A stretch of DNA of 64,000 bases from Victivallales bacterium (GCA_045612485.1 JAZKZE010000115.1:3524-67523); one strand, 5' to 3'; positions 1,539 through 55,090 are shown, numbered from the stretch's first letter. Made by a program: numbers and translations. The notes: a model not told the origin generated them from the letters alone.

Positions 1539-1553
1539 CGGGTGGAAATAAAA

Positions 1554-2927
1554 ATGAGTACAGAAAAAAAATATGCAATGGATATGTGTCATGGACCGCT
1601 TTTCAGCAAGGTATTGCGTTATTCACTTCCGCTGATCCTTTCCAATCTTGCCGCATTGCTGTTTCATGCTACCGACCTTGTTGTACTGGGGCAGTTCACC
1701 ACTTCCGACGATATGGCGGCAGTGGGGGCTACCAGCGGATTTATCCTTCTTATGCTCAATCTTTTCTGGGGCGTTTCCACGGGAGTAAATGTACTGACCG
1801 CCCGTTATACCGGAGCGAATGATCCGGAAAATGTATCAAAAACCGTCCATACTGCTATTGTCGTTGCGGCTCTTGGCGGGATCATTATGGGGGGGATAAG
1901 TTATCTTCTTACCGATCCCATTCTGCATCTCATGGCAACACCGGAAAAGATCATGGACAAGGCAAGACTGTATATGCGTCTTTCCTGTGCCGGGGTGCCC
2001 TTTATTATTTTTTACAGTTTCGGAAGTGCTGTCGTCCGGGCAGTGGGGGATACAAAACGGCCGCTTATCTATATGATCGTTTCCGGTATCATCAATGTTT
2101 TTCTCAATCTCTTTTTCATCCTTGTTCTGAAAATGGATGTTGCCGGAGTTGCCATAGCCACCCAGGTGGCTCATTTGATTTCCGCCTTTCTTATTTTGCG
2201 GGCATTGATAAGATCCAATGAGTCATATAAACTTGTCTGGAGAAAGATCTGTATTGACTGGAAGAGTCTGAAGGAGATGCTGCAAATCGGTATTCCTGCC
2301 GGGGTGCAGGGGTCTATGTTCACCATTGCCAATATGGCGATACAGGCTACCATCAATACATTCGGACCTGCCGCCATTGCCGGAAGTACCGCCGCTGTCA
2401 GTCTGGAAGGAACTGTCCATACGGTTTGCGCCACATTCTACCTTACAAGTATAAGTTTTGCAGGACAGAATCACGGCGGTAAAAAATATAAAAGGATCGT
2501 AAAAAGCATCTTTATATGTGCCGTCTGCTCTGCGGTGGGGATCGCGGTAATGGGATGGACTTTCATCCTTTTCGGTAAACAGCTTCTTGGCGTATATAAT
2601 CCGGATCCGGAGGTCATCCAATGGGGATTCATCCGTGTAAAAATGGTACTTTCCCTTTACTTCCTCTGCGGTGTCATGGATGTTATTTCCGGGGCGTTGA
2701 GAGGTTTGGGACACTCTTTGAAGCCCGCCATAGTCATCGTATTCGGTGTTTGCGTGTTCCGTATGATCTGGATCTTTACTGTATTCCGGCATGATCCTAC
2801 ACTGGAAACGCTTTTTATCGTTTATCCGGTATCATGGATTTTGATTTGCCTTATCAATGGTACAATGCTTTATGTTGTATGCCGTAAAATGCTGAAAAAT
2901 GCAAGCAGACGGTTGTTTGACAAATAA
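1554..2927 (+). CDS. MATE family efflux transporter (paralog 2 of 3)
   Basis: The ORF opens at GTG 1542, but ATG 1554 ([19 protein letters not shown]) aligns with the paralog 1 start. By eye it is very similar to paralog 1 along its whole length. Confidence 0.9.
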   Translation: MSTEKKYAMDMCHGPLFSKVLRYSLPLILSNLAALLFHATDLVVLGQFTTSDDMAAVGATSGFILLMLNLFWGVSTGVNVLTARYTGANDPENVSKTVHTAIVVAALGGIIMGGISYLLTDPILHLMATPEKIMDKARLYMRLSCAGVPFIIFYSFGSAVVRAVGDTKRPLIYMIVSGIINVFLNLFFILVLKMDVAGVAIATQVAHLISAFLILRALIRSNESYKLVWRKICIDWKSLKEMLQIGIPAGVQGSMFTIANMAIQATINTFGPAAIAGSTAAVSLEGTVHTVCATFYLTSISFAGQNHGGKKYKRIVKSIFICAVCSAVGIAVMGWTFILFGKQLLGVYNPDPEVIQWGFIRVKMVLSLYFLCGVMDVISGALRGLGHSLKPAIVIVFGVCVFRMIWIFTVFRHDPTLETLFIVYPVSWILICLINGTMLYVVCRKMLKNASRRLFDK

Positions 2928-2944
2928 ATAGGAAAGGAATGAAA

Positions 2945-4336
2945 ATGAGTAACGGAAAAAGGTACAAGATGGATATGTGTCACGGACCGCTTTTCAGCAA
3001 GATCGTCCGTCTTGCAGTACCTCTGGCAATGGCAAATGCTCTTGCTTTGATGTTTCATGCGGCAGACTTGATGGTGCTGGGGCATTTTGCCTCTTCCGAC
3101 GCTATGGCGGCAGTGGGGGCGGCTCCCTCTTTTACCACTTTGATGCTCAATCTTTTCTGGGGGATCGGTTCCGGGGTGAATGTACTTGTTGCCCGTTATA
3201 CCGGGGCAAAGGATAAACTGCATCTGGAAAAAACCATCCATACGGCGATCACCGTTGCCATTGCCGGCGGGATCATCCTTGCTGTTGGCGGCTGTTTTAT
3301 CACGAAGCCTGTTTTGCGTTTTATGGAAGTTCCTGACGTGATTTTTGATAAAGCCTGTCTTTATCTGTGGATCTGGTGTCTGGGGTCGCCTTTTATGATC
3401 CTTTACAGTTTCGGCAGTGCCATCCTCCGGGCGATCGGGGATACAAAGAGGCCGCTTATCTATATGATCATTGCCGGAGTGACCAATGTATTATTGAATC
3501 TCTTTTTTGTTACTGTATGTAAAATGGATGTTGCCGGAGTTGCCATTGCCACAAAGATCTCCAATGCGGTTTCCGCCATTCTTGTACTTATCGCCCTTAC
3601 CCGCAGTAAGGAAGATTATCAACTCATTTGGAAAAAACTCACATTCTACTGGCCCGTATTCAAAGAGATGTTGCGTATCGGTATTCCGGCAGGGATACAG
3701 GGGGCGTTGTTCTCTCTTTCCAATATGATCATTCAGGGGACCATCAACTCTTTCGGTCCTGCTGCCATTGCCGGAAGTACGGCGGGATTGAGTCTGGAAG
3801 GGATCGTTCATGCCGGAGCGACGGCTTTTGCATTGGCGGCAATGAGTTTTGTGGGACAGAATCACGGGGGCAGACAGTATAAGAGGATTATGAAAAGTAT
3901 TTATATATGTCTGGGGTGTTCCTGCGGGGTGATGATCGCAGGCGGCGGTATCATTCTGGCATTCCATACCCAATTTCTTTCCATTTTCAATCCTGATCCG
4001 GAAGTGATCAGATGGGGGTCGATCCGGCTTTTCTGTCAGTTGTCTTTCTATCCTCTGCTTGCTGTAATGGAGGTGCAGAATTCTTCTCTGCGGGGACTTG
4101 GGTACTCATTCTGGCCTATGGTCATTACTCTTATGGGGGCATGTGTTTTCCGGGTGATTTGGGTATTTACCATCTTCCCCCATTACAAAACTATGGAAAA
4201 TCTGATGATCTCCTATCCGGTTTCCTGGACTCTCATCTGTCTGGTCAACGGAGCATTGCTTATCTGTATCTGCCGCAGGATGCTTATACGGGCAAGCAAA
4301 CGGCAGTTTGATTTACTGACAGTAAAGAAAAGTTGA
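2945..4336 (+). CDS. MATE family efflux transporter (paralog 3 of 3, more diverged)
   Basis: Multi-TM ORF. ATG 2939 or 2945 could be the start; 2945 ([19 protein letters not shown]) matches the paralog N-termini and sits about 6 nt after AGGAAAGGA. Confidence 0.88.
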
Positions 4337-6831: not shown

Positions 6832-7263
6832 TTAATATTCCTTCATGGCGTCAGCCGAAAAAATTGCTTTTCTATCTCCGGGGATCTCTGAGGCAAAAGA
6901 GATGCCACTTCCGGAACATTTGAGCGGGGTATCGGCAAGGATGAATCTACTCTGGGCAAGATCATTGAGGAAGGTGATACATTCTTTGTAGGATTCCCTG
7001 ATCTTTTCCGGAACATTATTACCGGGACCGCGTTTGTATAATTCATATTCTGCAATGCGTAAGGTCCATTCTGTAATGAGGGGATTATCCGTAAGGGGGA
7101 CATTGTAGCGGATGCAGGCATAATTATTTACAAAACTTTCTGCTCTGGCAATGATCTCGTCAAGGAGTTTTATAAGGTTTTCGCCTGTTTTTCCGGAAAG
7201 ATTTTCCAGAACAGGACGTGTAAGACGGTTTTCCAGATCTTGCTTCTGAATATAATTTCCCAT
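6832..7263 (-). CDS. Mu gp36-like protein (DUF1320 family)
   Basis: 143 aa. The pattern Y..QDL......L..L...(30 aa)...ARAESFVNNYACIRYNVPL....L.EWTLRIAEYELYKR is typical of the DUF1320/Mu gp36 family. Confidence 0.8.
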   Translation of the reverse strand: MGNYIQKQDLENRLTRPVLENLSGKTGENLIKLLDEIIARAESFVNNYACIRYNVPLTDNPLITEWTLRIAEYELYKRGPGNNVPEKIRESYKECITFLNDLAQSRFILADTPLKCSGSGISFASEIPGDRKAIFSADAMKEY

Positions 7264-7342
7264 GGTTTCCTTTCTTTAGTATGCAATATAAGAAAAATCT
7301 CTCCGGACCGGGGTGGAATGTCCGGAGAGGAAAGGTGAAGAC

Positions 7343-8260
7343 TTACTCTTTGCTTCCGCCCTGATAGATCAGATGGGGGAAGGCGGTGAAGGAGGCGCCT
7401 CTGGCATTGGTGCCGTAAATGTATTCTTTATTCTTGAATACATTTTCATCCCCTTCTGAATCCAGACGGATGAGAGAAGGCATTTTCCGCTGCTGGATAA
7501 AGACAGGTTTGAGAACTCCGTCTGTTGCGGCAAGATACCAGTTATCCTCGTATTCGCCGGAAAGTTCGGGAAGTACCAGAAGTTCCGCGCTTCCGTTCCA
7601 GGGATTATCCGTTGCGGCAACCCCGGAAACATTTCCCTCATTGACTGTATGAAGAGTAAGACGGTCTTTCAGAATACTGAAAGCTGTTTCTTCATTTTTG
7701 GGACCGACAATAAGAAGATTAGGGATGATCCCCAGGTTTCTGCCGGAATGACCTTTATAATTCATCATGGTCATACGGGCGGAGGCGTAGGCAGAGGCGG
7801 AAAGAGGGGCGGAGGACTGATTGCAGATCACATTTTCCCCGTAAAGACGGCTGGAAGAGAAAAATTTCAGATCGTCCGCCCAGACCTGGTTGCTTACCAG
7901 AGCTTCCACGGCAAGATCGTGCCATAATCTTGCCGCATGGCAGCCCATCTGTGCAATGAGGGTGGAATAGATCCCGTACTGATCGTCTTCAATGTCATTT
8001 CCGGGAACGGCAATGGTTTCTTCAAAATCCCGGTTGAGGACTTCCAGTTTCCTGGTGGCGAGATCTTTGATGACTCTTTCGCCGATCCATTCTCTCATGC
8101 CGCCGAACTGTTCCAGGAAGGGGTAAACGTTGGAGGCACTTCCGGAGGGGATCACAGAACAGAATTTCTGCCAGGAAGCCGGGACTTTTTCCAGCCCCTG
8201 AAGAAAACTTGTGTTGAAGCCCTGAAAAAGTACATCCATGGTTTTACGGTTGATATCCAT
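7343..8260 (-). CDS. Mu-like major head subunit (gpT family)
   Basis: 305 aa. The N-terminus MDINRKTMDVLFQGFNTSFLQG...YPFLEQFGGMREWIGERV is characteristic of gpT-type capsid proteins. Confidence 0.9.
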   Translation of the reverse strand: MDINRKTMDVLFQGFNTSFLQGLEKVPASWQKFCSVIPSGSASNVYPFLEQFGGMREWIGERVIKDLATRKLEVLNRDFEETIAVPGNDIEDDQYGIYSTLIAQMGCHAARLWHDLAVEALVSNQVWADDLKFFSSSRLYGENVICNQSSAPLSASAYASARMTMMNYKGHSGRNLGIIPNLLIVGPKNEETAFSILKDRLTLHTVNEGNVSGVAATDNPWNGSAELLVLPELSGEYEDNWYLAATDGVLKPVFIQQRKMPSLIRLDSEGDENVFKNKEYIYGTNARGASFTAFPHLIYQGGSKE

Positions 8261-8314
8261 ATTTTATCCTTTCTTTTTTATGATTCTGTATGGAGAGTAA
8301 GTGTGTGTCTGATT

Positions 8315-8740
8315 TTATGCTCCGGCAAGGACAAGATTGCCCACTTCCACAATGAGAAGTCCGTCGGAATCGATCTCCCGGAGAACGCCTGCGGGGATTC
8401 TGTTTGTGCCGCCGTTTTTGCCAACGGTGTGGTCATCCACCACATAAACGATGTGATTGATGTCCTGTTCGCCAAGTTTTTCTCCTTCCGTACCGTTATC
8501 GTACTTGAACATTCCGGATTTGATAATGATCCTGCCGTCTGCGGCAAATCCTTCGGCTCTGCCGAGAACGATAAGTCCGGGGGAGTCGGAGGCATTCTGT
8601 GCCATTCCGGTAAGGGGATCTACGGCGGCGATAGCTCCGGTGAAAATTGTGCTGCCTGTTTTGATTTTTCTGATCCTGCGGAACTTCTGGGAGTGACAGA
8701 GAATCTCCGGGGTGTTTCTGTTTGCAGTAAGTGCTGCCAT
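8315..8740 (-). CDS. small phage head-associated protein (position of a decoration/DUF2190-like protein)
   Basis: Start taken at the internal ATG 8740 (MAALTANRN...), preceded by a GGAAAGG-like SD. It lies between the gpI and gpT genes. Function is inferred from position only. Confidence 0.55.
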   Translation of the reverse strand: MAALTANRNTPEILCHSQKFRRIRKIKTGSTIFTGAIAAVDPLTGMAQNASDSPGLIVLGRAEGFAADGRIIIKSGMFKYDNGTEGEKLGEQDINHIVYVVDDHTVGKNGGTNRIPAGVLREIDSDGLLIVEVGNLVLAGA

Positions 8741-8846
8741 GATTTTTTCCTTTCCAGCAGAGTGATGATCTGCTTTTTTCTTGTTGAAAGACAGAATATT
8801 TCTGTCTTTATGTTTTTGGTCAGAGAATTTTTTTGAGAATTGCTTT

Positions 8847-9737
8847 TTAATTTTTATTTTCTGTAAGTCCCAGCATGGAAAAAATCTCTTTTTCCAATGC
8901 GGAGGGAGAAGGCTTTTCTTCCGGTAAACGGGCCTGATCGGTATAGAGATTATCCGGAACGATCCGGGGGGCAGTTTGACACCAGAGATCAAAAAGGGCC
9001 GGATTTTCCTTCAGAAGAGTGTTTGCCCAGCAACGCATATTTTCAGTAAGGATCCCCCGGGAGAATGCTATTTGCAGTTTTTCATTTCTTACGATCTCTT
9101 CCGCCCGGGAAAGCAGTTTATTTGCATCCGCAAAATTTTTTATTCTGTGTGTTCTGAAAAATGTTTCTTTTTCCCTGTCGCCGGAAGTATCGGTACTGCC
9201 GGTCAAATCACTTGCCGCAAGCGGCGGAATATTATGCAGTGCCGGATGATTGGTCAATGCCACAGAATGGATCCCTGTGACATTTCCGGATCCGTTGGAA
9301 AAATACAATACCGGGGAATAATAGCGGTATTTTCCGCTGAGAATGAGTTCTTCCGCTTCTTTGGTCCAGTATTTGACAAGCCCTGCAAGACCTTCTTCAC
9401 TTTTTCGCAGCTCTTTGATCCAGCCCGCCGCCGGTGCCTTTGTTCCGCTGATGCTCTGATGTTCAAAATCAATAACAAGATCTTTGCCCCGGTTATGGAA
9501 TTCGTCTATGATGGTATCGGCATCTTCCGGAGAAAAAAAGAATTCTCCCTCATCGCCATCTTTGGTATAAGAATTTTTTCCATACTTCAAGAGAAGGATT
9601 TCTTCCGGAAGGGTACGGTTATTGGTATCGCTTACCGGGGAAGGAGGGGTGTTTTCTTTCCTTTTCTGTGAGATCGTTTCCGTAAAAGAGACGGGAATGA
9701 CAGTGGCATGGAAATATGCCATGGAATCCATTTGCAT
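8847..9737 (-). CDS. Mu-like prophage protein I (head protease/scaffold)
   Basis: Start at ATG 9737 (MQMDSMAYF...) after AAGGAAAG. Contains VIDFEHQS and AGWIKEL...YYSPV motifs typical of the Mu gpI family. Confidence 0.85.
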   Translation of the reverse strand: MQMDSMAYFHATVIPVSFTETISQKRKENTPPSPVSDTNNRTLPEEILLLKYGKNSYTKDGDEGEFFFSPEDADTIIDEFHNRGKDLVIDFEHQSISGTKAPAAGWIKELRKSEEGLAGLVKYWTKEAEELILSGKYRYYSPVLYFSNGSGNVTGIHSVALTNHPALHNIPPLAASDLTGSTDTSGDREKETFFRTHRIKNFADANKLLSRAEEIVRNEKLQIAFSRGILTENMRCWANTLLKENPALFDLWCQTAPRIVPDNLYTDQARLPEEKPSPSALEKEIFSMLGLTENKN

Positions 9738-9753
9738 TTTACTTTCCTTTTTT

Positions 9754-11094
9754 TTATGGGTTGTTTTTGTCAGTTGCCTGTTTTTCAAGGCGGATATTGA
9801 AGGCTTTTTCGATCCATTCGGGAGAGATGGCAAAATTGCTTTCAGAAAGCAGTTTGATGATCTGTGCTTTTTCCAGAAGATTTTCCGGAGAGGAAAAATC
9901 CAGGATGAAACGGTATTCACCGTCAGTACCGTAACAGTATTTTTCCAGAGGACGGAGCAATTGATTGTTGATTGTTTCCATCAGGGCGCGGCAATCTGCT
10001 TCCAGAATATCATGTCTTACATTTTCCTGGATCTGACCTTTGCTGAAGCCTCCGGAAACGGAACTGGAGGCAGTCTGTCCCAGAATGAGAAGGGTGTAAA
10101 GTTTATCTATGTAGTCCAGAAAAGTCTGGTACTCGCCGGAAGCGCTTATACCGGGAGAGAGAGTCTGGATCTGGGATTCTCCTGTAACGACTCCGGAACC
10201 GTCGGAAGAGATCCTGTTCAAGGCTGCAAGAATATTTTTTCTTGTATCCTCATTTTCAAAGTCCTGCTGATTGATCTTTGCAATGAGGAAGGGAACACCG
10301 AATTTTTCCAGAAATCTTGCCCTGTCTCTTAATGCATAATGTTTGAAAAAGTACAGCCACAGAAGGGGACGGAGCAAGCCGCCGCTGCCGCAGGGACCGG
10401 ACTTGAGCTTGTGGTAATGGAGAATAAACTGATGGGGATGATACTGGTAAAGGGGCCGGATCTGACCGCTATATGTACGCAATGCCGGATTGCCTGCGGC
10501 ATCAAAAAGAAAATTTTCCTGACAGATGCTTTTAAATCCTTTTATGGAAGAACCTCCTTCCTCCCATTCAATGACGGCTCCGGCACAGCCGAAAGCAAGG
10601 CTTTCCATAAGATGACGGAGCAAAAAATTTATGTTGGCTTTTTCCAGAATGGAGGAAAGCATACTGATTTTTTCCGGATCACGTCCGGCGATCTGCCAGT
10701 CACAGGCACATACAGCAAGTATTCTTGTTTGCAGATGAGCCGCAATGACCGGTTCATTTTCCAGTATGGCTCTGTAAAGGAAGGCCTGATCATAAAGAAA
10801 ACCGCTGTCCGCCTCTGTTGTTGCGGATCTGATGCGTGATGCGGAGATCTTTCCTGAAGGAGCAGGAACGGTAGAACAGAGTAATTCCTGAAAGTCTCTG
10901 CTTGAGTTACCGGACGGGATGGAACTGAGTCTGCTTTTGTGATTTTTTTCTGCCGGGGACGGACTGTATCTGATACAGTTTTCCGGCAAAGAAATTTTAC
11001 TGTCAGAAAGAGTTTTGGTTTTACGGAAAGAAAATGGCTGAAAGAAGGACGCTGTCATTTTCCCGGCAAAAAGGTGAAAGTGATTTTTTTTCAT
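9754..11094 (-). CDS. phage portal protein, Mu gp29-like (DUF935)
   Basis: Start at ATG 11094, 7 nt after AGGAG. Conserved blocks: IAAHLQTR, GCAGAVIEWEE, LLRPLLWLYFFKHYALRDRARFLEKFGVPF. Confidence 0.88.
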   Translation of the reverse strand: MKKNHFHLFAGKMTASFFQPFSFRKTKTLSDSKISLPENCIRYSPSPAEKNHKSRLSSIPSGNSSRDFQELLCSTVPAPSGKISASRIRSATTEADSGFLYDQAFLYRAILENEPVIAAHLQTRILAVCACDWQIAGRDPEKISMLSSILEKANINFLLRHLMESLAFGCAGAVIEWEEGGSSIKGFKSICQENFLFDAAGNPALRTYSGQIRPLYQYHPHQFILHYHKLKSGPCGSGGLLRPLLWLYFFKHYALRDRARFLEKFGVPFLIAKINQQDFENEDTRKNILAALNRISSDGSGVVTGESQIQTLSPGISASGEYQTFLDYIDKLYTLLILGQTASSSVSGGFSKGQIQENVRHDILEADCRALMETINNQLLRPLEKYCYGTDGEYRFILDFSSPENLLEKAQIIKLLSESNFAISPEWIEKAFNIRLEKQATDKNNP

Positions 11095-11267
11095 ATTCAG
11101 GGATCTCCTTTGGTTTGATCTCTGGTAAGGAGTATGCGTCAAACAAAAGGAGAAAAAAAGTAAAATTGGAGAATAAAAATTTACTCTCCGGAAAATGGTT
11201 CTGCTGATGGAAAAAACATGACAGGAAGGTTTTTTTATGAAAAAAAAGGGGGTTTTTTGCACTAAAA

Positions 11268-11300
11268 CAGAAATATTTCAGAAATATTTCAGAAATATTC
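11268..11300. repeat. 3 x 11-bp tandem repeat (CAGAAATATTT), each unit with an AAATATTT palindrome
   Basis: Units at 11268-11278, 11279-11289 and 11290-11300 (last base C). The array abuts the -35 box of the promoter below. Confidence 0.9.
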
Positions 11301-11329
11301 TTGCAATTCATCATAGAGGAGGCTATAAT
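11301..11329 (+). promoter_or_regulatory. sigma70-type promoter (TTGCAA-17-TATAAT) for the TolC-like operon
   Basis: TTGCAA at 11301-11306, a 17-nt spacer, consensus TATAAT at 11324-11329; about 60 nt upstream of the ORF start. Confidence 0.65.
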
Positions 11330-11389: not shown

Positions 11390-13159
11390 ATGGACAGGAG
11401 TATTTCAATGCGGAGAATTGCAGTTTCAGGTATAGTTGCAACGGCACTTTTGCTTGCTTTTTGTGTGACGGCATGTAAATCTATGGAATCTTATACGGCG
11501 GATCGTGCCGAACGGTCAGTTCTGGATACGAAAAAAGCAAGGAATATGGAGTTGCTTGACGGAAGAGTATATAATCTGGAACAGTGTATAAGTTATGCTT
11601 TGAAACACAATCTGCAAGTCCGTCTGCATGAACTGGATGTGAAAATCGCCAAAGAAAATAAGATGGCAGAGGTCATGGGGATGCTTCCTGAACTCAATTT
11701 CAATGAAAATTTCAGTGCCAGAAGCAATACTCCTGCTTCAGGAAGTGAAAAGATCCATGAGGACGGCGAAACCTACGGGAACAGTACAAGTGAAGAACGT
11801 CAGGTCAATTACTTCAATATCGACCTTGTATTCAGCGTTCTGGATATGGGATTGAGCTACTGGAATACGGAAATAGCACACAATAAAATGCTTCTGCATA
11901 AACAGCGTGCAGCCCGTATGAGTCAGAATATCCAGCTGGATGTTGTGAAGGCATACTTCAAAGTTGCCGCTGCGCAGCGTGCAAAAAATAAAACAGAAAA
12001 ACTTCTTGCTGAAACAAGGAAGAAAGCAGATGATATCCGCAAACTTTCCCTGACCGGTAAAATGGATCCCATCATGGCATTCAATGTCCTGCGGAAATTT
12101 ACCGCTATGGAAAAACAGCTGACCAATTATGTTAGAGTATATGAAAATGCTTGTACGGAACTGCGTACACTTATGGGACTTTATCCCAGCCCCATGATCA
12201 ATGTTGATGAAAGCTGCCTGGATAATCTGAAGGCATTGGAACTTTTTTCCGCTCTTGACCGTATGGAAAAGACTGTGGGGGCGGATGGAACAGAATATCT
12301 CCACAGAGATGGTGCAGTATGGAGAGATGATTCCGCACTTCCGGATGTGAGATTTACTCCTGTTGAACTTATGGAACAGATCGCTCTTCTCCAGCGTCCT
12401 GAAATGTATGAAAGCGACCTTCAGCAGATGATCAATGTGATCGAATGCCGCAAGGTCATTCTGATGATGTTCCCCAATGTGAAACTTTATACGGAATGGG
12501 CAAACAGTTCCAATAAATATCTCTATCACCAGAGCTGGCTTGAGCTTGGTGTGCGTGCCGCATATAATCTTCTCCTGCTCCCCCATCATATTGCCAAATA
12601 TACGGCATACAGCAAGCAGACGGAAGTATCTGCAATGCGCCGTTATGCAAAATCTGTGGCAGTGATGGCACAGGTGCGTCTGGGACATGCCAATTTGCTT
12701 TCCGCGCAGGAGATCTACAAAAAAGATGTTCAGATCAGCAGGGATTATAAACTGCATCTTGCCAATGCCTCCAAAGTTCTCAAATCCGGTGCCGGTAAAT
12801 ATAAAGGCATGGATCTGGAATACATGCGTCTGGAAACACTTAAAGCAGAGATCGATTCCATCCTTTCTCTCGGAAACTGCTATGTGGCGTACTACCGTCT
12901 GCTCAATGCCATGGGGATAAACAGTGCAGATTACCGTACTTTGGATTCTCTCTGGGAAGAACTTTCCGATACAGCAAGAAAAGCGGCTTCTTCCATGAAA
13001 AAGGCCCGTCAGGAGTATAAAGCGGAACGGGTGGAACAGTTCCGTCAGGAATTGGAAAAACAGGCTGCCGCTGAAAGAAAACAGGCCGAAGAAGCAGACA
13101 GAGCTTTGCGTGAGAAGATCAATCGTGAAATCGACGCAAAACTGGGTAAACGTAAATAA
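11390..13159 (+). CDS. TolC-like outer-membrane efflux-family lipoprotein with a C-terminal charged coiled-coil tail
   Basis: Lipobox LLAFCVTAC. An alternative start is ATG 11408, after AGGAG. OEP/TolC-type repeat pattern (LEQCISYALKHNLQV..., LDVVKAYFKVAAAQRA...). The last ~70 aa are K/E/R/A-rich (EKQAAAERKQAEEADRALREK). Confidence 0.85.
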   Translation: MDRSISMRRIAVSGIVATALLLAFCVTACKSMESYTADRAERSVLDTKKARNMELLDGRVYNLEQCISYALKHNLQVRLHELDVKIAKENKMAEVMGMLPELNFNENFSARSNTPASGSEKIHEDGETYGNSTSEERQVNYFNIDLVFSVLDMGLSYWNTEIAHNKMLLHKQRAARMSQNIQLDVVKAYFKVAAAQRAKNKTEKLLAETRKKADDIRKLSLTGKMDPIMAFNVLRKFTAMEKQLTNYVRVYENACTELRTLMGLYPSPMINVDESCLDNLKALELFSALDRMEKTVGADGTEYLHRDGAVWRDDSALPDVRFTPVELMEQIALLQRPEMYESDLQQMINVIECRKVILMMFPNVKLYTEWANSSNKYLYHQSWLELGVRAAYNLLLLPHHIAKYTAYSKQTEVSAMRRYAKSVAVMAQVRLGHANLLSAQEIYKKDVQISRDYKLHLANASKVLKSGAGKYKGMDLEYMRLETLKAEIDSILSLGNCYVAYYRLLNAMGINSADYRTLDSLWEELSDTARKAASSMKKARQEYKAERVEQFRQELEKQAAAERKQAEEADRALREKINREIDAKLGKRK

Positions 13160-13225
13160 GAGCAATGTTTCGGGTTATAACTAAAGATTAAGAAATATAT
13201 TCAGGAATACAGGACGGAGGAAGGA

Positions 13226-15394
13226 ATGCAGAAGTTGAAAGTTTCCATCATATTTACTCTGGCAGCCGCCGGCGGGATCGCCATGAGTGTTGCCGGCTGC
13301 CGCACGGAAGAATCTTACCGTGAGGAAAGAAAAGAGAAGGCTGTTGCCGTTTACAGGGATGTCAAAGCCAAAGAGTATCACAAAGGGATGACTCTTACTC
13401 TTGATGATTGTATCAGTTTTGCGTTGCGGAACAATATGAGTGTCAAGGTGGCAAATATGGAACGGGATGTCGCTGAAAGAATGAGAACGGCAGATATTCT
13501 GGGAATGCTTCCTGATATTACCATATCCGATAATTTTGCAGGAAGAAGCAATTCTCCCGGTTCAGGCAGTAAAGCTGTTGTAGGGGATGGAGCCACTTAC
13601 GGTTACAGCCGCAGCAGTGAAAAACGGGTCAATAACTTTAATATTGATTTTGCATTCAGTCTTCTGGATTGCGGACTTGCCTTCTTCAATGCACAGCAGA
13701 GTCATGACCGTATGCTTTTGCAGGAAAAAGCCGCAGAACGTATCAAACAGAATATTGTACTGGATACAGCAAAAGCCTATTTCCGTGTAGCGGTTGCCCA
13801 GAGAGCTGCCAAGTTGACAGAAGATCTGCTCAAGGAGTGCAAAGACCGTTATGAACTTATCCGGAAATTGCGCAAGGATAACAAGATCGATCCCTATCTT
13901 GCAACAGAAGAGATCAATAAGTTCCTTGCCATGGAATACCGTTTGAGAAATTATATCAGAACCAATGCCACTGCCCAGATCGAACTGAGAACTCTTATGG
14001 GGGTATATCCCGGGGAAGAGCTGAAAGTGGATGATTCTGTTCTGGATAATCTCCCCCAGATGGATATTCCGGATATTTCTCTTCTGGAACAGATCGCTGT
14101 TCTGAAAAGACCTGAACTTTATGAAACAGACATGCAGAAACACATCAACATCATCGAGTGCCGCAAAACCCTCCTTATGATGTTGCCCAATGTACGTCTT
14201 TACGGGGATTTTATTAACAACAGCAACTCCTTCCTGATGCATCAGTCCTGGTGGGAACTTGCGGTGCGTGCCGCATACAATGTACTGAAAACCCCCCAGT
14301 ATATCTACCGTTACAGAGCCTTCAATGAACAGGCATCTCTGGAAGAGTTGCGTTCTTTCGTCCAGGCGATCGCTGTTATGTCCCAGGTGCGTATGGCGGC
14401 TTCCGACATCATTGCCTGCCGTGACCGTTATGACATCAATGTGCGTGATGATGAGATCTATACCAAACACCTGGCAAAGACCGCAAAAGCCAAAGTCGTC
14501 AATATGAAAAAACTGGAATTGGAACATTTGAGAATGGTTGCAGCAGAAACCCGTATTGAGAAACTCATCTCCATGGGGGCCTGTCATATTGCCAATTACC
14601 GTCTGCTCAATGCGCTGGGTATCGACTCTACAGACAGCAAGACCATCGGTTCCATCAAAAGTCAGCTTGATCTTGCCAAAGTGAGAGCTGAAAAACAGCT
14701 TGCTGCCGCAGAAAGAGATTTCCAGGCAAAACTCAATGCCCTTGAAGAGGCGCGTATCGCCCGTATGCTTTTTGATGATGCTTCTGCCTACTACAAGGAT
14801 AAAAAATATGTTGAAGCTGCTGAGTATCTTAAACGTGCGGCAAAGAGAGGAAATGCAGAAGCCTGGTTCTGTCTCGGAAAACTTTACTGGAACGGCAACG
14901 GCGTGAAGAAGGATTATATGAGAGCCGTCCGCTGTTTCGTAAGATCTGCCGATCTGGGGAAAAAGGAAGCACAATTGCTTGCCGGCTGGACCTATTACAA
15001 GGGCGGGCCTGTGAAACAGGATCTTGCCATTGCAAAGAAATATTACCGTATGGCGGCAGACAATGCTGAAGAAAGAGCATTTTACTGGCTGGGTGTAGTC
15101 AGTTACGACATGAAAGATTACAAGGATGCCATGTACTATTTCAAATATGCCGCCAGAGGCGGGGATGTGGGATCTATGGTCTGGGTCGGTACGCTTTACC
15201 GTAACGGACTTGGTGAAAAAGTGGATTACGACAAAGCCGTTTTCTGGTATGAACGTGCAGCGAAAAAGAATAATGTGGATGCGATGAACTGTCTGTATAT
15301 GATGTATGCGGGTGGTTATGGCATCAAAGCTGATGAAAAGAAAGCAGATGAATGGCTGAAGAAATATGAAGCTGCCACTGCTGCCAGATATTGA
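13226..15394 (+). CDS. TolC-like outer-membrane lipoprotein fused to C-terminal Sel1-type repeats
   Basis: Lipobox MSVAGC. The N-terminal ~500 aa are paralogous to the previous gene. The C-terminal ~200 aa carry about 5 Sel1-like repeats (AEAWFCLGKLYWNGNGVKKDYMRAVRCF..., DAMNCLYMMYAGGYGIKADEKKADEWLKK). Confidence 0.85.
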   Translation: MQKLKVSIIFTLAAAGGIAMSVAGCRTEESYREERKEKAVAVYRDVKAKEYHKGMTLTLDDCISFALRNNMSVKVANMERDVAERMRTADILGMLPDITISDNFAGRSNSPGSGSKAVVGDGATYGYSRSSEKRVNNFNIDFAFSLLDCGLAFFNAQQSHDRMLLQEKAAERIKQNIVLDTAKAYFRVAVAQRAAKLTEDLLKECKDRYELIRKLRKDNKIDPYLATEEINKFLAMEYRLRNYIRTNATAQIELRTLMGVYPGEELKVDDSVLDNLPQMDIPDISLLEQIAVLKRPELYETDMQKHINIIECRKTLLMMLPNVRLYGDFINNSNSFLMHQSWWELAVRAAYNVLKTPQYIYRYRAFNEQASLEELRSFVQAIAVMSQVRMAASDIIACRDRYDINVRDDEIYTKHLAKTAKAKVVNMKKLELEHLRMVAAETRIEKLISMGACHIANYRLLNALGIDSTDSKTIGSIKSQLDLAKVRAEKQLAAAERDFQAKLNALEEARIARMLFDDASAYYKDKKYVEAAEYLKRAAKRGNAEAWFCLGKLYWNGNGVKKDYMRAVRCFVRSADLGKKEAQLLAGWTYYKGGPVKQDLAIAKKYYRMAADNAEERAFYWLGVVSYDMKDYKDAMYYFKYAARGGDVGSMVWVGTLYRNGLGEKVDYDKAVFWYERAAKKNNVDAMNCLYMMYAGGYGIKADEKKADEWLKKYEAATAARY

Positions 15395-15444: not shown

Positions 15445-15478
15445 GCCGGACAGAGTTGTTCTGTCCGGCTTTTATTTT
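15445..15478 (+). terminator. rho-independent terminator
   Basis: GCCGGACAGA pairs with TCTGTCCGGC (10-bp stem, 5-nt loop), followed by TTTTATTTT. Confidence 0.8.
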
Positions 15479-18371: not shown

Positions 18372-19550
18372 ATGAAAACATGGAAACATCCCCTTGTACT
18401 TACTGCACTTTTTTGTGCCATGCTGCTTTCAGCTGCCCCGAAAATGCAGGAAAAGCTGATTTTTCCGGAAAAGATCTATGCCGTACCGGGTATTGAAAGC
18501 AATATTTATTATGAAAATATTTTCCATACCCACAATCCTGCCAATTACTCTTTTGAATTTCTGTGTAAAAAAGGGAATAATGGAGAGAAAAGATGGTACT
18601 ATACGCCCAGGAAAGGGGATGAAGGTACTTATGACGTTACTTTGCGTGTCTGGGATGATGATGGCGTGGTAGCGGAAGCAAAAAGCCAATTGATCGTCAC
18701 ACCTGCTGATGCGGGTAAGGATAAAGAATTTTCCCTTATGATCGTAGGGTGCAGCGGCATTGCCATGTATAATGCCTACCCCACCCATGTGTATAATCTT
18801 TTCCGGCAACCCGGAAATCCCAAATTAACGATGGTCGGGGAAACCGGACCGGGGTGGCCCGATAAGATCGGCGAAATCCGGCACGAGGGGTACGGCGGAT
18901 GGAGTTTTCTTACTTTTACCACCAGCGGCCGTATCCGTGGGAAATCACCTAATATGCGGGAAAATCCCTTCTGGAATTTCCAGACGAAAAGTCTGGATTT
19001 TGCGGCATATTTCAAAAAGAATAATGGAGGAAAAGCTCCGGATATCATTACAGTCACTCTTGGCGGAAATGATACATTCAGCGGAAAGGATGATACCATT
19101 GAAAAAATTATTTCCGGTGTGAAACAGAGAGCCGTTACTTTTTTCTCAGCTCTGCGGAAAGCTGCCCCCAATGCAAGGATCGCCATTGTCATGCCCTATT
19201 ATATTGCCGCCTCCCAGGATGCTTTCGGGTACAATTACGGTACTGCCGGGAACAGATGGCAGTTTAAGAAGAATTACAGGGCTTATATGCTGATGATGCT
19301 TGCTCTTGCAAAGGAAAGAAAGGATCTGAAACTGGATGTTGTTCTTACCAGCGGTGCAACGGATAATGAAAATAACGTTACGATCCATAAAATTGCCCCC
19401 AATGCCCGTAATAAGGCAGTGAAGATCAAACGTATCGGCAATGCTCTCCACCCCCTTCCTGCCGGGTATCAGCAGAGTGCGGATGTTTTCTATTGCTGGG
19501 TGAAATATATATATCATCAGCAGAAGGCAGAAAAACTCCCCGGAAAATAA
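18372..19550 (+). CDS. secreted SGNH/GDSL-like hydrolase-fold protein (paralog 1)
   Basis: Signal peptide. Block III LGGNDTF and block V-like GNALHPLPAGY are present, but block I reads IVGCSG instead of GDS. Confidence 0.8.
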   Translation: MKTWKHPLVLTALFCAMLLSAAPKMQEKLIFPEKIYAVPGIESNIYYENIFHTHNPANYSFEFLCKKGNNGEKRWYYTPRKGDEGTYDVTLRVWDDDGVVAEAKSQLIVTPADAGKDKEFSLMIVGCSGIAMYNAYPTHVYNLFRQPGNPKLTMVGETGPGWPDKIGEIRHEGYGGWSFLTFTTSGRIRGKSPNMRENPFWNFQTKSLDFAAYFKKNNGGKAPDIITVTLGGNDTFSGKDDTIEKIISGVKQRAVTFFSALRKAAPNARIAIVMPYYIAASQDAFGYNYGTAGNRWQFKKNYRAYMLMMLALAKERKDLKLDVVLTSGATDNENNVTIHKIAPNARNKAVKIKRIGNALHPLPAGYQQSADVFYCWVKYIYHQQKAEKLPGK

Positions 19551-19606
19551 GGGTTCGGAATAAAAACAATTTATATAAACAATAAACAACTGAAGGAGAA
19601 AAATTC

Positions 19607-20788
19607 ATGAAAACATTGAAACTCACCATGACACTTGCTGCACTTTTCTGTGCGGTGCTGCTTTTTGCAGCACCGAAAATGCAGGATAAACTGATTTTGC
19701 CGGAAAAGATCTACGCAGTACCGGGCATTGAAACCAATATTTACTATGCCAACATTTTCCGTACCATCAATCCTGCCAACTATTCCTTTGAATTCCTGTG
19801 CAAAAAGGGCAATAACGATGCCAAGAGATGGCACTTTACTCCGAAAAAAGGTGAAGAAGGTACTTATGATGTTACCTTGCGTGTCTGGGATGATGATGGT
19901 GTGGTTGCAGAAGCCAAAAGCCAGTTGATCGTTACCCCTGCGGATGCAGGAAAAGATAAAAATCTTTCCATTATGATCGTGGGGTCTTCCTGTATTTCCA
20001 TGTTCCACGCATACCCCACTCATATTTACAATCTCTTTAAAACCCCCGGTAATCCCAAACTTACCATGATCGGTGAAAACGGCCCCGGCTGGCCCGATAA
20101 AATCGGTGAGATCCGTCATGAAGGTTACGGAGGATGGAGTTATCAGACCTTTATCACCAAGGGACGTGTCCGTGGTAAAAGTGCCAATATGAGAGAAAGT
20201 CCCTTCTGGAATTTCAAGACAAAAAGTCTGGATTTTGCTGAATATTTCAAGAAAAATACCAATGGCAAAGCTCCTGATCTTGTGACGGTTTCCCTTGGCG
20301 GAAATGATATGTTCCGCGCTCAGGATGCCACCATGAAAGAACACGTTGCCGGTGTGAGAAAGAATATGATCACATTCTTTACCGCCCTGCGTAAAGCAGC
20401 TCCCGATGCGAAAGTTGCCATCGTTCTTATTGATTATGCTGCCACCTCCCAGGATGCCTTCGGTTACAACTACGGCAGCACCCAGACCAGATGGCAGTTC
20501 AAGAAAAATTATGCCGCCTTTATCAAAATGGTACAGGCTCTGGTGAAAGAAAAACCTGAACTCAAACTGGAACTGGTGCTTCTTAATGGTGCCGTGGATA
20601 ATGAAAACAATGGTCACATCTACAGAATGAATGCCAATGCCAGAAATAAAGCAACGAAAGTTCTTTTCCAGGCAAATGCCCTGCATCCCAAGCCCCATGG
20701 TTATCAGCAGGGTGCAGATGCCTTCTACTGCTGGATGAAGTATATGCTTCACAGAGATGAACAGGCAGCAAAAGCTGTAAAGAAATGA
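19607..20788 (+). CDS. secreted SGNH/GDSL-like hydrolase-fold protein (paralog 2)
   Basis: Very similar to the previous gene, with long identical stretches such as TYDVTLRVWDDDGVVAEAKSQLIVTPADAGKDK. Contains LGGNDMF, ANALHPKPHGY, and IVGSSC at block I. Confidence 0.8.
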   Translation: MKTLKLTMTLAALFCAVLLFAAPKMQDKLILPEKIYAVPGIETNIYYANIFRTINPANYSFEFLCKKGNNDAKRWHFTPKKGEEGTYDVTLRVWDDDGVVAEAKSQLIVTPADAGKDKNLSIMIVGSSCISMFHAYPTHIYNLFKTPGNPKLTMIGENGPGWPDKIGEIRHEGYGGWSYQTFITKGRVRGKSANMRESPFWNFKTKSLDFAEYFKKNTNGKAPDLVTVSLGGNDMFRAQDATMKEHVAGVRKNMITFFTALRKAAPDAKVAIVLIDYAATSQDAFGYNYGSTQTRWQFKKNYAAFIKMVQALVKEKPELKLELVLLNGAVDNENNGHIYRMNANARNKATKVLFQANALHPKPHGYQQGADAFYCWMKYMLHRDEQAAKAVKK

Positions 20789-20827: not shown

Positions 20828-20963
20828 ACGTCGCATAATATACATTATGTGACAGAGAAAGGCTTTTTTTCCGTTGCAAAATAAAAAAAAAGCAGATATG
20901 TGAAGTATAAAACAGATTTAATAGAAATTCAAAGGAGGTAACATAATGTATATTATGCGACGT
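20828..20963. promoter_or_regulatory. perfect 23-bp inverted repeat flanking a 90-bp spacer that holds the SD; the right arm covers the start codons
   Basis: The left arm 20828-20850 (ACGTCGCATAATATACATTATGT) is the exact reverse complement of 20941-20963. GGAGG sits at 20934-20938, and the candidate ATGs at 20946 and 20955 lie inside the right arm. Confidence 0.9.
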
Positions 20964-21728
20964 CAAAAATTTACACTTATTGAATTGTTGGTTGTCATAG
21001 CTATTATTGCCATCCTTGCCGGGATGCTTCTTCCGGCATTGACCAAAGCAAGATCCAAAGCATTTTCCACCGCCTGTAAAAATCAGTTGAAGCAGTGCGG
21101 GCTTTATATGCATATGTATGCGAATGATTTTAAAGGCTGGGTTCCGGCTAATGCCCGTGGCTACGACTACGAAACCGGATATCTGGACACTCTTGCCCCC
21201 TATATCGGGTGGACTCCGGATACTATTAAGAAATCTTCTATGACAGGGAATAATGAAAGGGCAATCAGTATTCTCTCCAAATTCAAAACTTTTTCCTGTC
21301 CCACCATGCCGCTGCCCAAATATCTCATTTCCTATGCTGAGCTGCAGCATTATACTTACGGGGTGTTTTCCTGTCCCCGTACAGCAAGTTATTCTTACTA
21401 CGAACTGAAATGGCCTGAGGTAAACAGTAAAGCACATTGGAAGATCGAACTTATGAAGATCAATAATACACCTCCCCATATGGCAGATACTATTTCCCAT
21501 GTTAAATCTTATGAAAGAGAGGGCGCGACGGTGGCAGGCATATTCCAGGCGCCTTCTTTTCAGGTCAATAGCCAGGGCGATGTCGGGTATATCGGGATGC
21601 GCCATGACGGGGAAGCCAATACCCTGCGTATCGATATGGCTGTAAAAAGTTACAAAGGAAGACAGATTTTTACGGCTCCGCGTGTTTTGCGTTACAGATC
21701 CGGTAACGGTACGATTATTGATAAATGA
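20946..21728 (+). CDS. prepilin-type N-terminal cleavage/methylation domain protein (DUF1559-like pseudopilin-like protein)
   Basis: N-terminus [35 protein letters not shown], with a C-terminal degenerate H-x9-DG-like block ([17 protein letters not shown]). Confidence 0.85.
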
Positions 21729-21775: not shown

Positions 21776-24700
21776 ATGAAAAAAAGTTTGTATAGTTACT
21801 TTGCTCTTGCAGCAGCCTTTTTTGCGGGCTTTTCTGCTGTCGCGGCAGAAAAGGGCAATCTTGTGGCAGATCCCGCTTCTGCTGTCAAAAATACATGGAA
21901 AAAATATCCTGTTGCAGGTAAAGATTTCTGGATGCTCCTTGACCCCAGATGGCTGGAACTCAAGGGCGTTTCCCATGAAGAATTTGTACAGAAGTCCGGA
22001 ACAGGATTCGTCCAACAGACTGTCTCCGGAGAAAATGTGACAAATCTGCGTGTTCTTACCATCGGGGAAATCACCTCCTATGATGCAAGAAACAGAAGAA
22101 GAAAAGCAACCATAGAGGTCATTCCCGAAGAAAAGGATATGCTGGTGACCGATCCCCAGTACCTCAATGACGGAAGTGTCAGAAATTACTGTGTTTTTTC
22201 CGGTAATGTTCTGGATATGACAAGACGCTATGCCATTCATAAAAACACACTGAAATTCAAAAGTGATTTCGCCATTGCACGCCTTGCCATCAATCATGGT
22301 GTCGGCAAAGACAACCGTATCAGCAAACTTTTGTGCAACGGTAAAGAAGTACAGATCCCTGCTGATAAAAATACTTTTGATGTGAAGATCACTCCGGCAG
22401 CAAAGGAATTTGAACTTACTGTCTATTCCTCCCCCCTGAAATATCAGGCAAAGGAATTGAATGTGCCTTATGAAGAAAGATTGAAAAAGGCTCCCTTCTG
22501 GCTGACCAATATGTTCCGTGCCAATTACGGTAACATTTTCGGAACCGATGTCTGCAATTTCGATCAGGAAAGTTTTGCTTCTGTCAGAAAAAAATACGGG
22601 GAAAACTTTATCGGCTACTGGCTGCCGGAATGGGATCACAACTATATCCTTGCTGTATCCCGCCCCAATCTTCCCTATTACAAAACCATTCAGAACTTTA
22701 TCAAAGTACCCTGCAATAAAGAGGATTTTGTTAAAGGCGTCCTGAAATTCTGCTGGGATTCCCATAAACCGCTTTTCGGCAAAGATCTTCTGGGTATGAG
22801 CGGTCAGGTGCTTTTCATGCATCACGCCTGTGACTGGGGAAGCACCGTTTCCGGTCTGGAAATCACCCAGGAAAAAACCGAACTTGCCGGAAGGATCTCT
22901 TTTATGTTTACCAGAGGTGCTTCCAGACAGTTTGATAAACCCATGTATATTTATCAGGCATACTATGGCGGTTCCCAGTCTCCCAGCAGTACTTTGCGCG
23001 GTTACAACAGAAGAATAGACTGGGGAGTGGCTCCCTCCCTCACCATGCGTAACTTCATGGCAAGTTACTATATGGGTAACAACTATCTTGACTTTGAAGC
23101 ACAGCCCTACGGGATGGTTCTTCAGGAAAAAAATGGAAATCATACTCTTACCGGCAACGGTAAAGTCATGAAAGAATTTTATGAGTGGACTGCCTCCGAC
23201 AAAGGAAAACGCGGGGAAAGTTATACCCCCATCCTTCTCCTTGCCGACAGAAAACACGGCTATGATATGTGGTACAGAATTGCTCCCAGAGGCTGGGACA
23301 ATTTCTATAACATCTATCCTCTGACTGATGCCAATTTCTTTATGGAATATGTGATGCAGGTCATCAGCCCCCGCTATGATTACAACAAGTTTGACAACCC
23401 CAAATACAGCCCAAATCTGCACAACTCCACAGTAGGGGATATTTTTGACCTCTATCTTGCCAACCCCCTTGTAAACGGGGAAGTGCGTCTGGATCAGTTG
23501 AAAAAATATCCGGTGGTAGCCCTTGTTGATAACATCACCTATACAGAAAAACTTGCCAATACCCTGAAACAGTATGTTGCAGAGGGGGGAACTCTTCTTC
23601 TTACCACCGGGCAGACCGCTCCCTTTGAAGAAGATAAAGATTTCCTCGGCGTGACTATCGGAAAAGATACAAAGAAGGAAGACGGACTTTTTGTCAATCC
23701 TCTCACCCTTCTTCCCGGTACGGAAACTGTTATGGCAACAAGCAGAAAGACTCCCCTTGCCACAAAGAAAAAATACGGCAATGGTCATGTGATCCTGCTT
23801 GCCTCCCCCTACATGAAGAAAACTGGTGACTTGACAAAAGTGCCCCAGCAGCTTGTAAAACTTTTTGAAAAGATCCAGAGCGAACTTCTGCCGGTAAAAG
23901 TGGAAGGCGATTGCCAGTACCTTTTCAATATCATGCCTGACGGTACATGGAAAGTTATCCTTATCAATAACAGGGGTATTGTGAAACTTCCCACAGAATC
24001 CTTTGAAAAGCATTTCAAGGAATATACCGCCAAAGTCACCCTTACCGTTCCTGCCGGAGTCACCATAAAGGAATTGCGTAAAAATACCGTTCCTGTTGTG
24101 AAAAAGGGTAAAGAATTCGATCAATATACTTTCAATATCGCTCCTGCTGATATTTATGTAGTGGATATGAAAGGGATCAAATTCGGTAAGACCGTCAAAA
24201 AAGGTCCTGCAAAATTCAACAGAGTGAAGAATTATAAATTCCAGCCCTATACCCCCAAAAAGGTCAATGACGGTTATAAACCCCGTCCTGCCGCAACTCT
24301 CGCCGCCATGGGAAAAAATATGGTTGCCGCTCCTGCTGTTGTTGCCTCATGGAAAGGGGAAGGGATGAAAGAGGTCACCGGTAAAGGGTATGAATTGAAA
24401 TTCCACAATGTGGAAGTAAAAGACGGCATTGCCAGATACAATACCAAACGTTCCTGGGCTACTTTGAACGTTCAGCTCAAACATTCTCTGCCGGCAGTAA
24501 GCTATGAGCTTGTTGTCAAACCTGCTCCCATTGAACAATGGAAGAACGTTTACGGCAGACATGTGAGAGGCGGAGTTCTTTATCCCCACCGCAACCTTAT
24601 GCTGGAATATTATCACGGCAGATGGACACTTCTTCTCTTTGAAAGGCTCATCTATGACCGTGTGATGGGCCCGAAAGCCGCTGCGGAGTGGACACACCTC

Positions 24701-55046: not shown

Positions 55047-55090
55047 CTTATTTCCTTTCCCGGACAGAATCTGTGCAATTCATTTTCCCG

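Follow-up and report, generated by a model that had tools for sequence, protein, structure and literature searches.

TolC-family ducts in the outer membrane are known to work with RND, MFS and ABC pumps and in type 1 secretion. In TolC and OprM, both chain ends lie in the periplasmic equatorial domain, roughly at the level of the peptidoglycan. Here we analyse a 64-kb stretch of DNA from a gut Victivallales bacterium (JAZKZE010000115.1:3524-67523; hereafter the window), which encodes two adjacent lipoproteins of this outer membrane factor (OMF) family, A and B, the second extended at its C-terminus by a tail of Sel1 repeats. A preliminary description, made from the sequence alone, had presented them as orphan TolC-like lipoproteins in tandem. 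Their subfamily is normally encoded together with two HlyD-like adaptors, a fusion of an M50-type metalloprotease to an HlyD-like domain (M50-HlyD) and a giant DUF4347 protein, a set of genes that we call the cassette, so that the pair is an orphan at this locus only. We consider it probable that A and B act as the ducts or the anchors in a giant-protein envelope system that, among the genomes scanned, is found almost only in Lentisphaerota.

The described OMFs TolC, OprM and CusC (PF02321) resemble A and B in their OEP domain, their long-helix fold and, as judged from relatives of the pair, their linkage to HlyD-type adaptors; the N-terminal lipobox is shared with OMFs of the OprM/NodT type. 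A and B are nevertheless very divergent from these proteins (19-32 bits with the NCBIfam models as against cut-offs of 210-225), and they carry an extra C-terminal helix and tail, with Sel1 repeats in B. The partners of their subfamily are M50-HlyD and two adaptors rather than an RND, MFS or HlyB-type ABC pump.

The adhesin LapA is secreted by means of a signal at its C-terminus, and a region at its N-terminus serves in retention or processing. In the systems of LapA with LapB, LapC and LapE, and of RTX adhesins, a giant repetitive protein of non-Sec type likewise stands beside an OMF and HlyD-type adaptors, and the conservation of both termini of the DUF4347 giants is reminiscent of the two regions of LapA. 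The cassette differs from such systems in having no conserved ABC transporter, no detected RTX repeats in its giants, two OMF paralogues of which one is Sel1-tailed, and an intramembrane M50 protease instead of a periplasmic protease of the LapG type. As for type 1 secretion more generally, linkage of HlyD adaptors to the OMF is found in relatives but not in the window, and no dedicated HlyB-type ABC transporter is conserved among the cassettes.

AlgK-AlgE, PelB, BcsC and PgaA resemble B in that a helical-repeat periplasmic module, presumably a docking scaffold, is coupled to an outer membrane export channel. These channels, however, are monomeric beta-barrels that export polysaccharide and have their repeats at the N-terminus or on a separate lipoprotein, whereas B belongs to a family of TolC-type trimers, carries its repeats in a C-terminal tail and has no polysaccharide synthase alongside (none was found at the locus by Pfam on the window proteins); the NCBIfam AlgK model scores 37.8 bits against a cut-off of 700. 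The closest structural analogy to an element on the periphery of TolC is offered by the TolC-YbjP complex of Escherichia coli, in which an accessory lipoprotein binds the equatorial domain of TolC with a stoichiometry of 3:3 (eLife 2026, PMC13095208) and is proposed to position TolC (PMC13095208). The fused C-terminal tail of B would share this 3:3 equatorial geometry; in contrast to B, whose module is covalently fused and tied to a giant-protein cassette, YbjP is a small, separate, non-Sel1 lipoprotein. Finally, the leader-peptide proteases of ribosomally synthesized and post-translationally modified peptides (daptide, YydH/LiaK) offer a comparison for the partner system and not for the window genes. 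The M50-HlyD protein of the cassette is like them in its daptide match, its HExxH motif and a weakly PqqD-like N-terminus, but it falls under the equivalog cut-off (160 against 300 bits), is fused to an HlyD-like domain and is associated not with short peptides but with giant proteins.

A divergent outer membrane factor pair and its Sel1 fusion

Both genes lie on the + strand. Gene A (11390..13159) encodes a TolC-like OMF lipoprotein of 589 aa if read from 11390; its true start is probably Met7 (11408), which gives 583 aa, because orthologues begin there and an independent gene call has that length. Gene B (13226..15394) encodes a fusion lipoprotein of 722 aa with OEP and Sel1 matches in Pfam. 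The two were correctly described at the outset as adjacent paralogues: they share 39% identity across ~540 aa, and hidden Markov model scans place OEP in both (60 bits in A, 49.6 bits in B, cut-off 22) and Sel1 in B (75.2 bits, cut-off 30.7), all above the Pfam cut-offs, which makes A and B members of the OMF family. The lipoboxes noted earlier are also present: VTAC in A (residues 26-29, Cys29; 11465..11476), with a cysteine that is invariant in 76/76 aligned family members, and VAGC in B (residues 22-25, Cys25; 13289..13300), with a cysteine invariant in 27/27 fusion homologues. The more specific NCBIfam models for TolC (TIGR01844; 26.8 and 31.8 bits for the two) and NodT (TIGR01845; 21.2 and 18.9 bits) score far below their cut-offs of 225 and 210, and we therefore regard A and B as divergent members of the family. 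The internal OEP duplication is visible as two Pfam stretches in A, and B aligns with A over both halves; both beta-hairpin motifs (LPxL/V...) are conserved in the alignments. The OMF core of B spans residues ~57-470 (13394..14635), of which residues 57-329 match the Pfam and NCBIfam TolC models and the whole can be aligned to A.

AlphaFold2 monomer models were built for B from a 27-sequence alignment and for A from a 76-sequence alignment (predicted local distance difference test score, pLDDT, 70.8 and 75.1, respectively). The long-helix cores are confident in both, and the models have a predicted TolC-like fold, the beta-hairpins excepted (pLDDT <50). In a Foldseek comparison with the PDB, the best 44 matches to the model of A are all OMFs (among them TOprJ1, TolC, OprM, OprN, CusC, MtrE, CmeC and VceC), while the model of B finds Sel1-like-repeat proteins first (TM-score (target) up to 0.6-0.7) and then CusC and TolC (~1e-4). 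A sequence search of the PDB with B matches its tail to solved Sel1 proteins such as 6ok3 (E = 1.3e-43); this phmmer search returned Sel1 and TPR proteins only, with no OMF match, since the OMF part has diverged beyond what phmmer can pick up.

The preliminary description saw a related charged coiled coil at the end of both cores. A conserved helix is indeed there, but it is not specific to A and B: ~35 aa following the OMF core (LKKxLxxERVRAAEELxKAKAEYEA-like) are conserved in every member of the subfamily. In other members this helix is followed by a variable tail rich in Ala, Lys, Glu and Pro, in place of which B has its Sel1 repeats. The charged C-terminal tail of A (~75 aa; 12932..13156) is modelled as one helix of 74 residues (residues 515-588, pLDDT 77-88), and its length and end motif are kept in A-clade orthologues. 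In B, a long linker helix predicted at residues 471-524 (14636..14797) includes the family-wide C-terminal helix and the ARIAR-LF junction; with 54 residues, or ~80 Å, it could span the distance to the adaptor-docking end of the tunnel, which is a matter of geometry and not evidence of docking. Residues 525-722 (14798..15391) form five Sel1 repeats and a capping helix according to Pfam, the match to 6ok3 and Foldseek, and in the model the five helix pairs and cap occupy residues 528-721 at a pLDDT of ~90, so that the earlier count of about five repeats over ~200 aa is correct. With a score above threshold and a solenoid fold, the tail belongs to the Sel1-repeat family (PF08238); its NCBIfam similarities to MotX and AlgK are weak, generic Sel1 matches far under the cut-offs.

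The fusion of OMF and Sel1 modules is genuine and conserved. Two independent ENA metagenome assemblies encode an identical 722-aa protein in the same A-B-PriA neighbourhood, and full-length OEP+Sel1 homologues fall into at least 37 clusters of proteins at 49-94% identity, of which those with a name are all from Lentisphaeria/Lentisphaerae. The motif at the fusion junction, ARIARxLF, is conserved, with R510, I511, A512 and L515 of B invariant, as are many core residues. The two assemblies, the 37 clusters and the conserved junction rule out a join made by misassembly or frameshift, a possibility that the preliminary description had raised. A TolC-Sel1 fusion is not known to have been characterized, and a search of the literature found none described in searchable papers.

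Sel1 proteins recur beside these OMFs in unfused form. In Victivallis (L023, L026 and L035) the order is a Sel1 protein of ~800 aa with a signal peptide, one OMF and a giant, and in L012 and L014 additional Sel1 lipoproteins adjoin B. The recurrence of the Sel1 module in the cassette, fused in one lineage and separate in others, supports a functional link with the OMF. The periplasmic interaction role that had been proposed for the tails fits both OMF topology and these signal-peptide-bearing Sel1 proteins.

Related loci and their giant-protein cassette

A scan of GTDB species genomes for the TolC subfamily found 51 loci, all from Lentisphaerota except one from Desulfococcaceae and one from a metagenome-assembled genome (MAG) labelled Verrucomicrobia; together with loci from protein look-ups there are 53 that are non-redundant. 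A giant DUF4347 gene, a three-gene module or both lie within the locus in 38 of the 53. The module consists, in this order, of genes for an HlyD-like protein of ~266 aa, an HlyD-like protein of ~466 aa and an M50-metalloprotease-HlyD fusion of ~710 aa, and the two adaptors (HlyD266 and HlyD466) are both carried by 25 loci. As read from gene order, the complete cassette runs A-type OMF, giant DUF4347, B-type OMF-Sel1, HlyD ~266, HlyD ~466, M50-HlyD ~710. The cultivable Victivallis vadensis DSM 14823 has cassettes at L025, L033 and L037. On a deeper branch of the family, L050 (438-3412) and L052 (9977-12947) each carry adjacent TolC paralogues (~485 + ~497 aa) without a Sel1 tail and with neither a giant gene nor a module beside them.

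In a neighbour-joining tree of the OMF cores, A of the window groups with the OMFs upstream of the giant in L010 and L012, and B groups with all the Sel1 fusions, which stand directly downstream of the giant. Outside the clade of the window, the C-terminus and stop codon of a giant gene lie immediately upstream of B in 14/14 informative fusion loci; the start of B is often within a few bases of that stop, and in L010 and L007 the open reading frames (ORFs) overlap. Only three loci have no giant upstream of B: that of the window and those of L005 and L017, at 74% and 73% identity, respectively. Placed by phylogeny and gene order, A and B are orthologous to the pair of OMFs found on either side of giant DUF4347 genes. 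The 'tandem' reported in the preliminary description is thus real as an adjacency but arises from the absence of the giant gene standing between A and B in sister genomes: the pair is A-[giant]-B without the giant, and the position of the giant is taken by a spacer of 66 nt (13160..13225, + strand) that holds the ribosome-binding site of B, GGAGGAAGGA.

Judged by the same comparison, the giant and the three module genes are gone from this locus in the lineage of the window, leaving a two-gene OMF operon still under purifying selection, and the orphan status of A and B is a derived, local state. Relative to L005, dN/dS is ~0.17 for A and ~0.10 for B, with dS close to saturation; both genes are, on these estimates, under purifying selection. 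In agreement with the preliminary description, which reported no membrane-fusion protein (MFP), ABC or RND partner nearby, Pfam on 30 further proteins and tblastn with cassette seeds found no MFP, RND, type 1 secretion ABC, M50-HlyD or DUF4347 gene in the 64-kb window.

The giant DUF4347 proteins range from 1,267 to >9,690 aa; examples are L003:141-9944, L010:2013-9893 and L025:11549-19048. They carry an invariant N-terminal motif, xF(K/R)LE(D/E)R(V/I)LF(D/E)xAA, that has no obvious Sec-type hydrophobic core, followed by an acidic linker, the DUF4347 domain and a repetitive region. The last is rich in GGxIY-type motifs in the example from L003, and stored Pfam matches suggest that it consists of beta-helix/PMP-like repeats. 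DUF4347 itself has a near-invariant His (H..G) and Cys (GD..Y(G)C), a pattern reminiscent of a Cys/His peptidase dyad, as well as DVAAS..TG..G.W.LE. Giants beside B-type OMFs share a conserved extreme C-terminus, ...FKDSFDKALDxLLGxDA, and no match was found in the giants to RTX/HemolysinCabind repeats or any other type 1 secretion signal family. A homologue search with one giant N-terminus returned only 12 matches, all either unnamed or named 'DUF4347 domain-containing protein'. Assignment of the N-terminus to a 'LEPR-XLL' domain was not supported, as NCBIfam gave no match on three giant N-termini.

Of the module proteins, HlyD266 scores 143 bits with RND_mfp (cut-off 94.9). The M50-HlyD protein (~710 aa) combines an M50-type membrane metalloprotease, with HExxH in 15/15, and a C-terminal HlyD-like domain; residues 38-415 match the NCBIfam daptide intramembrane metalloprotease at 8e-47 (160 bits, under the 300-bit equivalog cut-off), and the PqqD-like match at its N-terminus is weak (E 0.005, below cut-off). 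The literature search found no functional description of DUF4347 or M50-HlyD proteins in searchable papers. Motif searches and tblastn across all loci revealed no ABC transporter conserved across cassettes, only sporadic ones in L028 and L064. The gene at the latter locus (L064:2165-12675, from a Victivallis vadensis MAG) encodes an ABC exporter of 601 aa (ABC_membrane + ABC_tran); it comes after a DUF4347 giant, called in two pieces of 510 and 2292 aa, and is not conserved in other cassettes.

Even in relatives the cassette is often divided. The module directly follows the fusion gene in just 7/17 fusion loci, so split encoding is common. In the MAG GCA_017629515.1, the window-like locus L005 consists of Mu-like head genes, A, B and PriA, while another contig carries a HlyD245-HlyD470-M50HlyD734 module with no OMF or giant beside it. 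A second MAG (L061) likewise has a stand-alone HlyD-HlyD-M50HlyD module, and in genome SIG94 the genes for B (E7055_07820) and M50-HlyD (E7055_06420) are unlinked, with distant locus tags. The stand-alone modules (L061:5292-9592 and L063:7839-12205) are the mirror image of the stand-alone OMF pair in the window. The preliminary description had suggested looking elsewhere in the genome for adaptor genes that lack an OMF; such genes exist on the other contig of the sister genome. At L063, an exporter of an MFP, an ABC protein and an ABC-2 permease, without an OMF, lies ~600 nt from the module on the opposite strand. P0247, a candidate for the DUF4347 giant of the sister MAG, was rejected as it is a Victivallis vadensis locus.

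Proposed giant-protein export or anchoring and its alternatives

The preliminary description left the function of the pair among tethering, adaptor recruitment and a non-efflux role. The context of the subfamily and the module in the sister genome narrow this list to export or anchoring of a giant protein, with the task of the Sel1 tail put forward from context. We believe it likely that A and B serve such a system, in which the OMFs would assemble into trimers and serve as docking ducts for HlyD-type adaptors whose genes lie elsewhere in the genome, and the giant protein would be exported through these ducts or retained on the cell surface. The C-terminal helix would leave the equatorial domain on the periplasmic side, running along or away from the alpha-barrel. 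From cassette context and the topology of TolC and OprM, the Sel1 solenoid of B could then be the docking site for the adaptors or for a segment of the giant in the periplasm, a task that the separate periplasmic Sel1 protein may perform in Victivallis.

Several points weigh against this interpretation. Everything beyond the family assignment rests on gene neighbourhood, and, as the window holds the OMF pair only, the claim for a system rests on the related loci. Fifteen of the 53 subfamily loci have neither a giant nor a module, although several of these are on short contigs. The distant module was demonstrated in a sister MAG of 74% identity rather than in the window genome, and that MAG yielded no DUF4347 giant. 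No ABC or other energizing transporter is conserved, which leaves the passage of the giant across the inner membrane unexplained. The docking partner of the Sel1 tail is a proposal. Finally, the beta-hairpin segments are unmodelled (pLDDT <50) in both monomers, perhaps owing to monomer-only prediction, and for this reason the models say nothing about the barrel or the direction of the tails.

A more detailed version of the giant-protein interpretation is possible but doubtful. It posits an as yet undescribed TolC-dependent pathway for giant beta-helical surface proteins, with no ABC transporter dedicated to it, in which M50-HlyD, possibly by means of its weakly PqqD-like N-terminus, would recognize and cleave the invariant LE(D/E)RVLF(D/E)xAA leader of the giant, the two HlyD-like adaptors would bridge to the OMF, and Sel1-tailed B would grip either the giant at its periplasmic end or the ring of adaptors, giving surface anchoring.

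Alternatively, A and B might be general-purpose OMFs like TolC of E. coli, serving several pumps (for example of the MFP-ABC2 kind), with the linkage to giants incidental or only one of their uses. It is well established that most partners of E. coli TolC are encoded away from tolC, the exporter near the M50-HlyD module of L063 lacks an OMF of its own, and 15 of the 53 loci have no cassette neighbour. We nevertheless regard this explanation as unlikely, because the linkage is very strong (38/53 loci overall and 14/14 fusions outside the window clade), with B often placed tightly behind the giant stop and even overlapping it in L010 and L007. Specialization is suggested by the conserved tails and by the fusion to Sel1, and the NCBIfam scores for TolC (type 1 secretion) and NodT are far under their cut-offs. 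A general-purpose role may in any case coexist with service to the giant.

It is improbable that A and B are mainly structural proteins whose Sel1 repeats and charged helices bind peptidoglycan or a scaffold and tether the outer membrane without transport. As the structures of TolC and OprM have established, the C-terminus of an OMF does leave the equatorial domain near the peptidoglycan, the cell wall is a site of action for some Sel1 proteins, and there is the weak NCBIfam similarity to MotX and AlgK; the E. coli TolC equatorial domain, moreover, binds an accessory lipoprotein, YbjP (PMC13095208). However, neither Pfam nor NCBIfam detected a peptidoglycan-binding domain in A or B, the similarities to MotX and AlgK are generic, the duct-forming core has been kept by purifying selection, and the co-occurring adaptors and cargo-like giant favour transport or anchoring of a protein.

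In the window, L005 and L017 the locus has neither giant nor module, which could also mean that the pair is what is left, decaying and functionless, of a cassette stripped of its cargo and inner membrane genes. This we consider very improbable: both ORFs are intact in three diverged genomes with dN/dS of 0.10-0.17, the promoter, ribosome-binding site and terminator of the pair are conserved, and the module persists elsewhere in the sister genome. An artefactual OEP-Sel1 fusion, for which nothing speaks and against which stand the two independent assemblies and the shared junction of the 37 clusters, hardly merits consideration.

Local signals, window surroundings and significance

The signals that frame the operon, all on the + strand, were largely as first described. 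A sigma-70-like promoter (TTGCAA, 17-nt spacer, TATAAT; 11301..11329) had been called near-consensus; the consensus scan as a whole performs at chance level (10 sites found as against 8.6 expected), but at this site both hexamers and their spacing are retained in two other genomes despite diverged flanks. Adjoining the -35 hexamer on its upstream side is a triple tandem repeat (11268..11300) of the 11-nt unit CAGAAATATTT. The AAATATT-TCAGAAA core is kept in L005 and L017, and the repeats may therefore be an operator. The strong terminator is borne out: at 15445..15478 an intrinsic terminator with an 11-bp stem, seven G-C pairs and a T-run ends the A-B operon (-19.6 kcal/mol; z = -5.5 relative to shuffled sequences). 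Within A, a lineage-specific in-frame insertion of 38 aa, ALDRMEKTVGADGTEYLHRDGAVWRDDSALPDVRFTPV (residues 288-325; 12251..12364), lies between the OEP halves in the equatorial region; it is absent from all the orthologues compared (L005, L010, L012, L025 and L035) and is modelled with pLDDT <50.

The 30 other window proteins include, by Pfam, MatE pumps, a Mu-like head module, PriA, GDSL hydrolases, housekeeping proteins and type II secretion components. The five-gene Mu-like head module (6832-11262, - strand) is isolated, without terminase or tail genes, and comprises a gp36-like gene (6832-7263), the major head gene gpT (7343-8260), a small ORF, a protease/scaffold gene (8847-9920) and a portal gene (9754-11262). 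It occupies the same position in L005, divergent from gene A, and gpT is 89% identical between the two loci at the protein level, above the 85% of PriA. This shared position and the higher conservation of gpT suggest a capsid module that has been domesticated or kept for a long time, and not a prophage of recent arrival.

Elsewhere in the window, three successive paralogues of the MATE efflux family (MatE; 165-4336) are each 457-465 aa long. Paired GDSL-like lipase/acylhydrolase paralogues (392 + 393 aa; 18372-20788) are followed by a 1060-aa Laminin_G_3 protein (21776-24958), and positions 20946-21728 encode a pseudopilin-like N-methyl/DUF1559 protein. Type II secretion genes form a cluster (53829-59085, - strand) that includes a GspF-like gene (53829-55046), the GspE ATPase (55091-56701) and the secretin GspD (56698-59085), and probably reaches ~62 kb.

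The subfamily to which A and B belong is unusual in its extra C-terminal helix and tail, in the Sel1 solenoid of one lineage, in its adaptor and M50 partners and in its giant neighbours. For annotation, 'orphan TolC' genes of this kind can now be linked to specific distant partners. The detailed scheme of leader cleavage and B-mediated anchoring, if true, would constitute a new secretion or anchoring system of Lentisphaerota. Should the giants prove to be exported or anchored by these OMFs, this would be a new way of moving megadalton proteins across a diderm envelope, and it would offer a handle on how the poorly studied gut Lentisphaeria build their surface.

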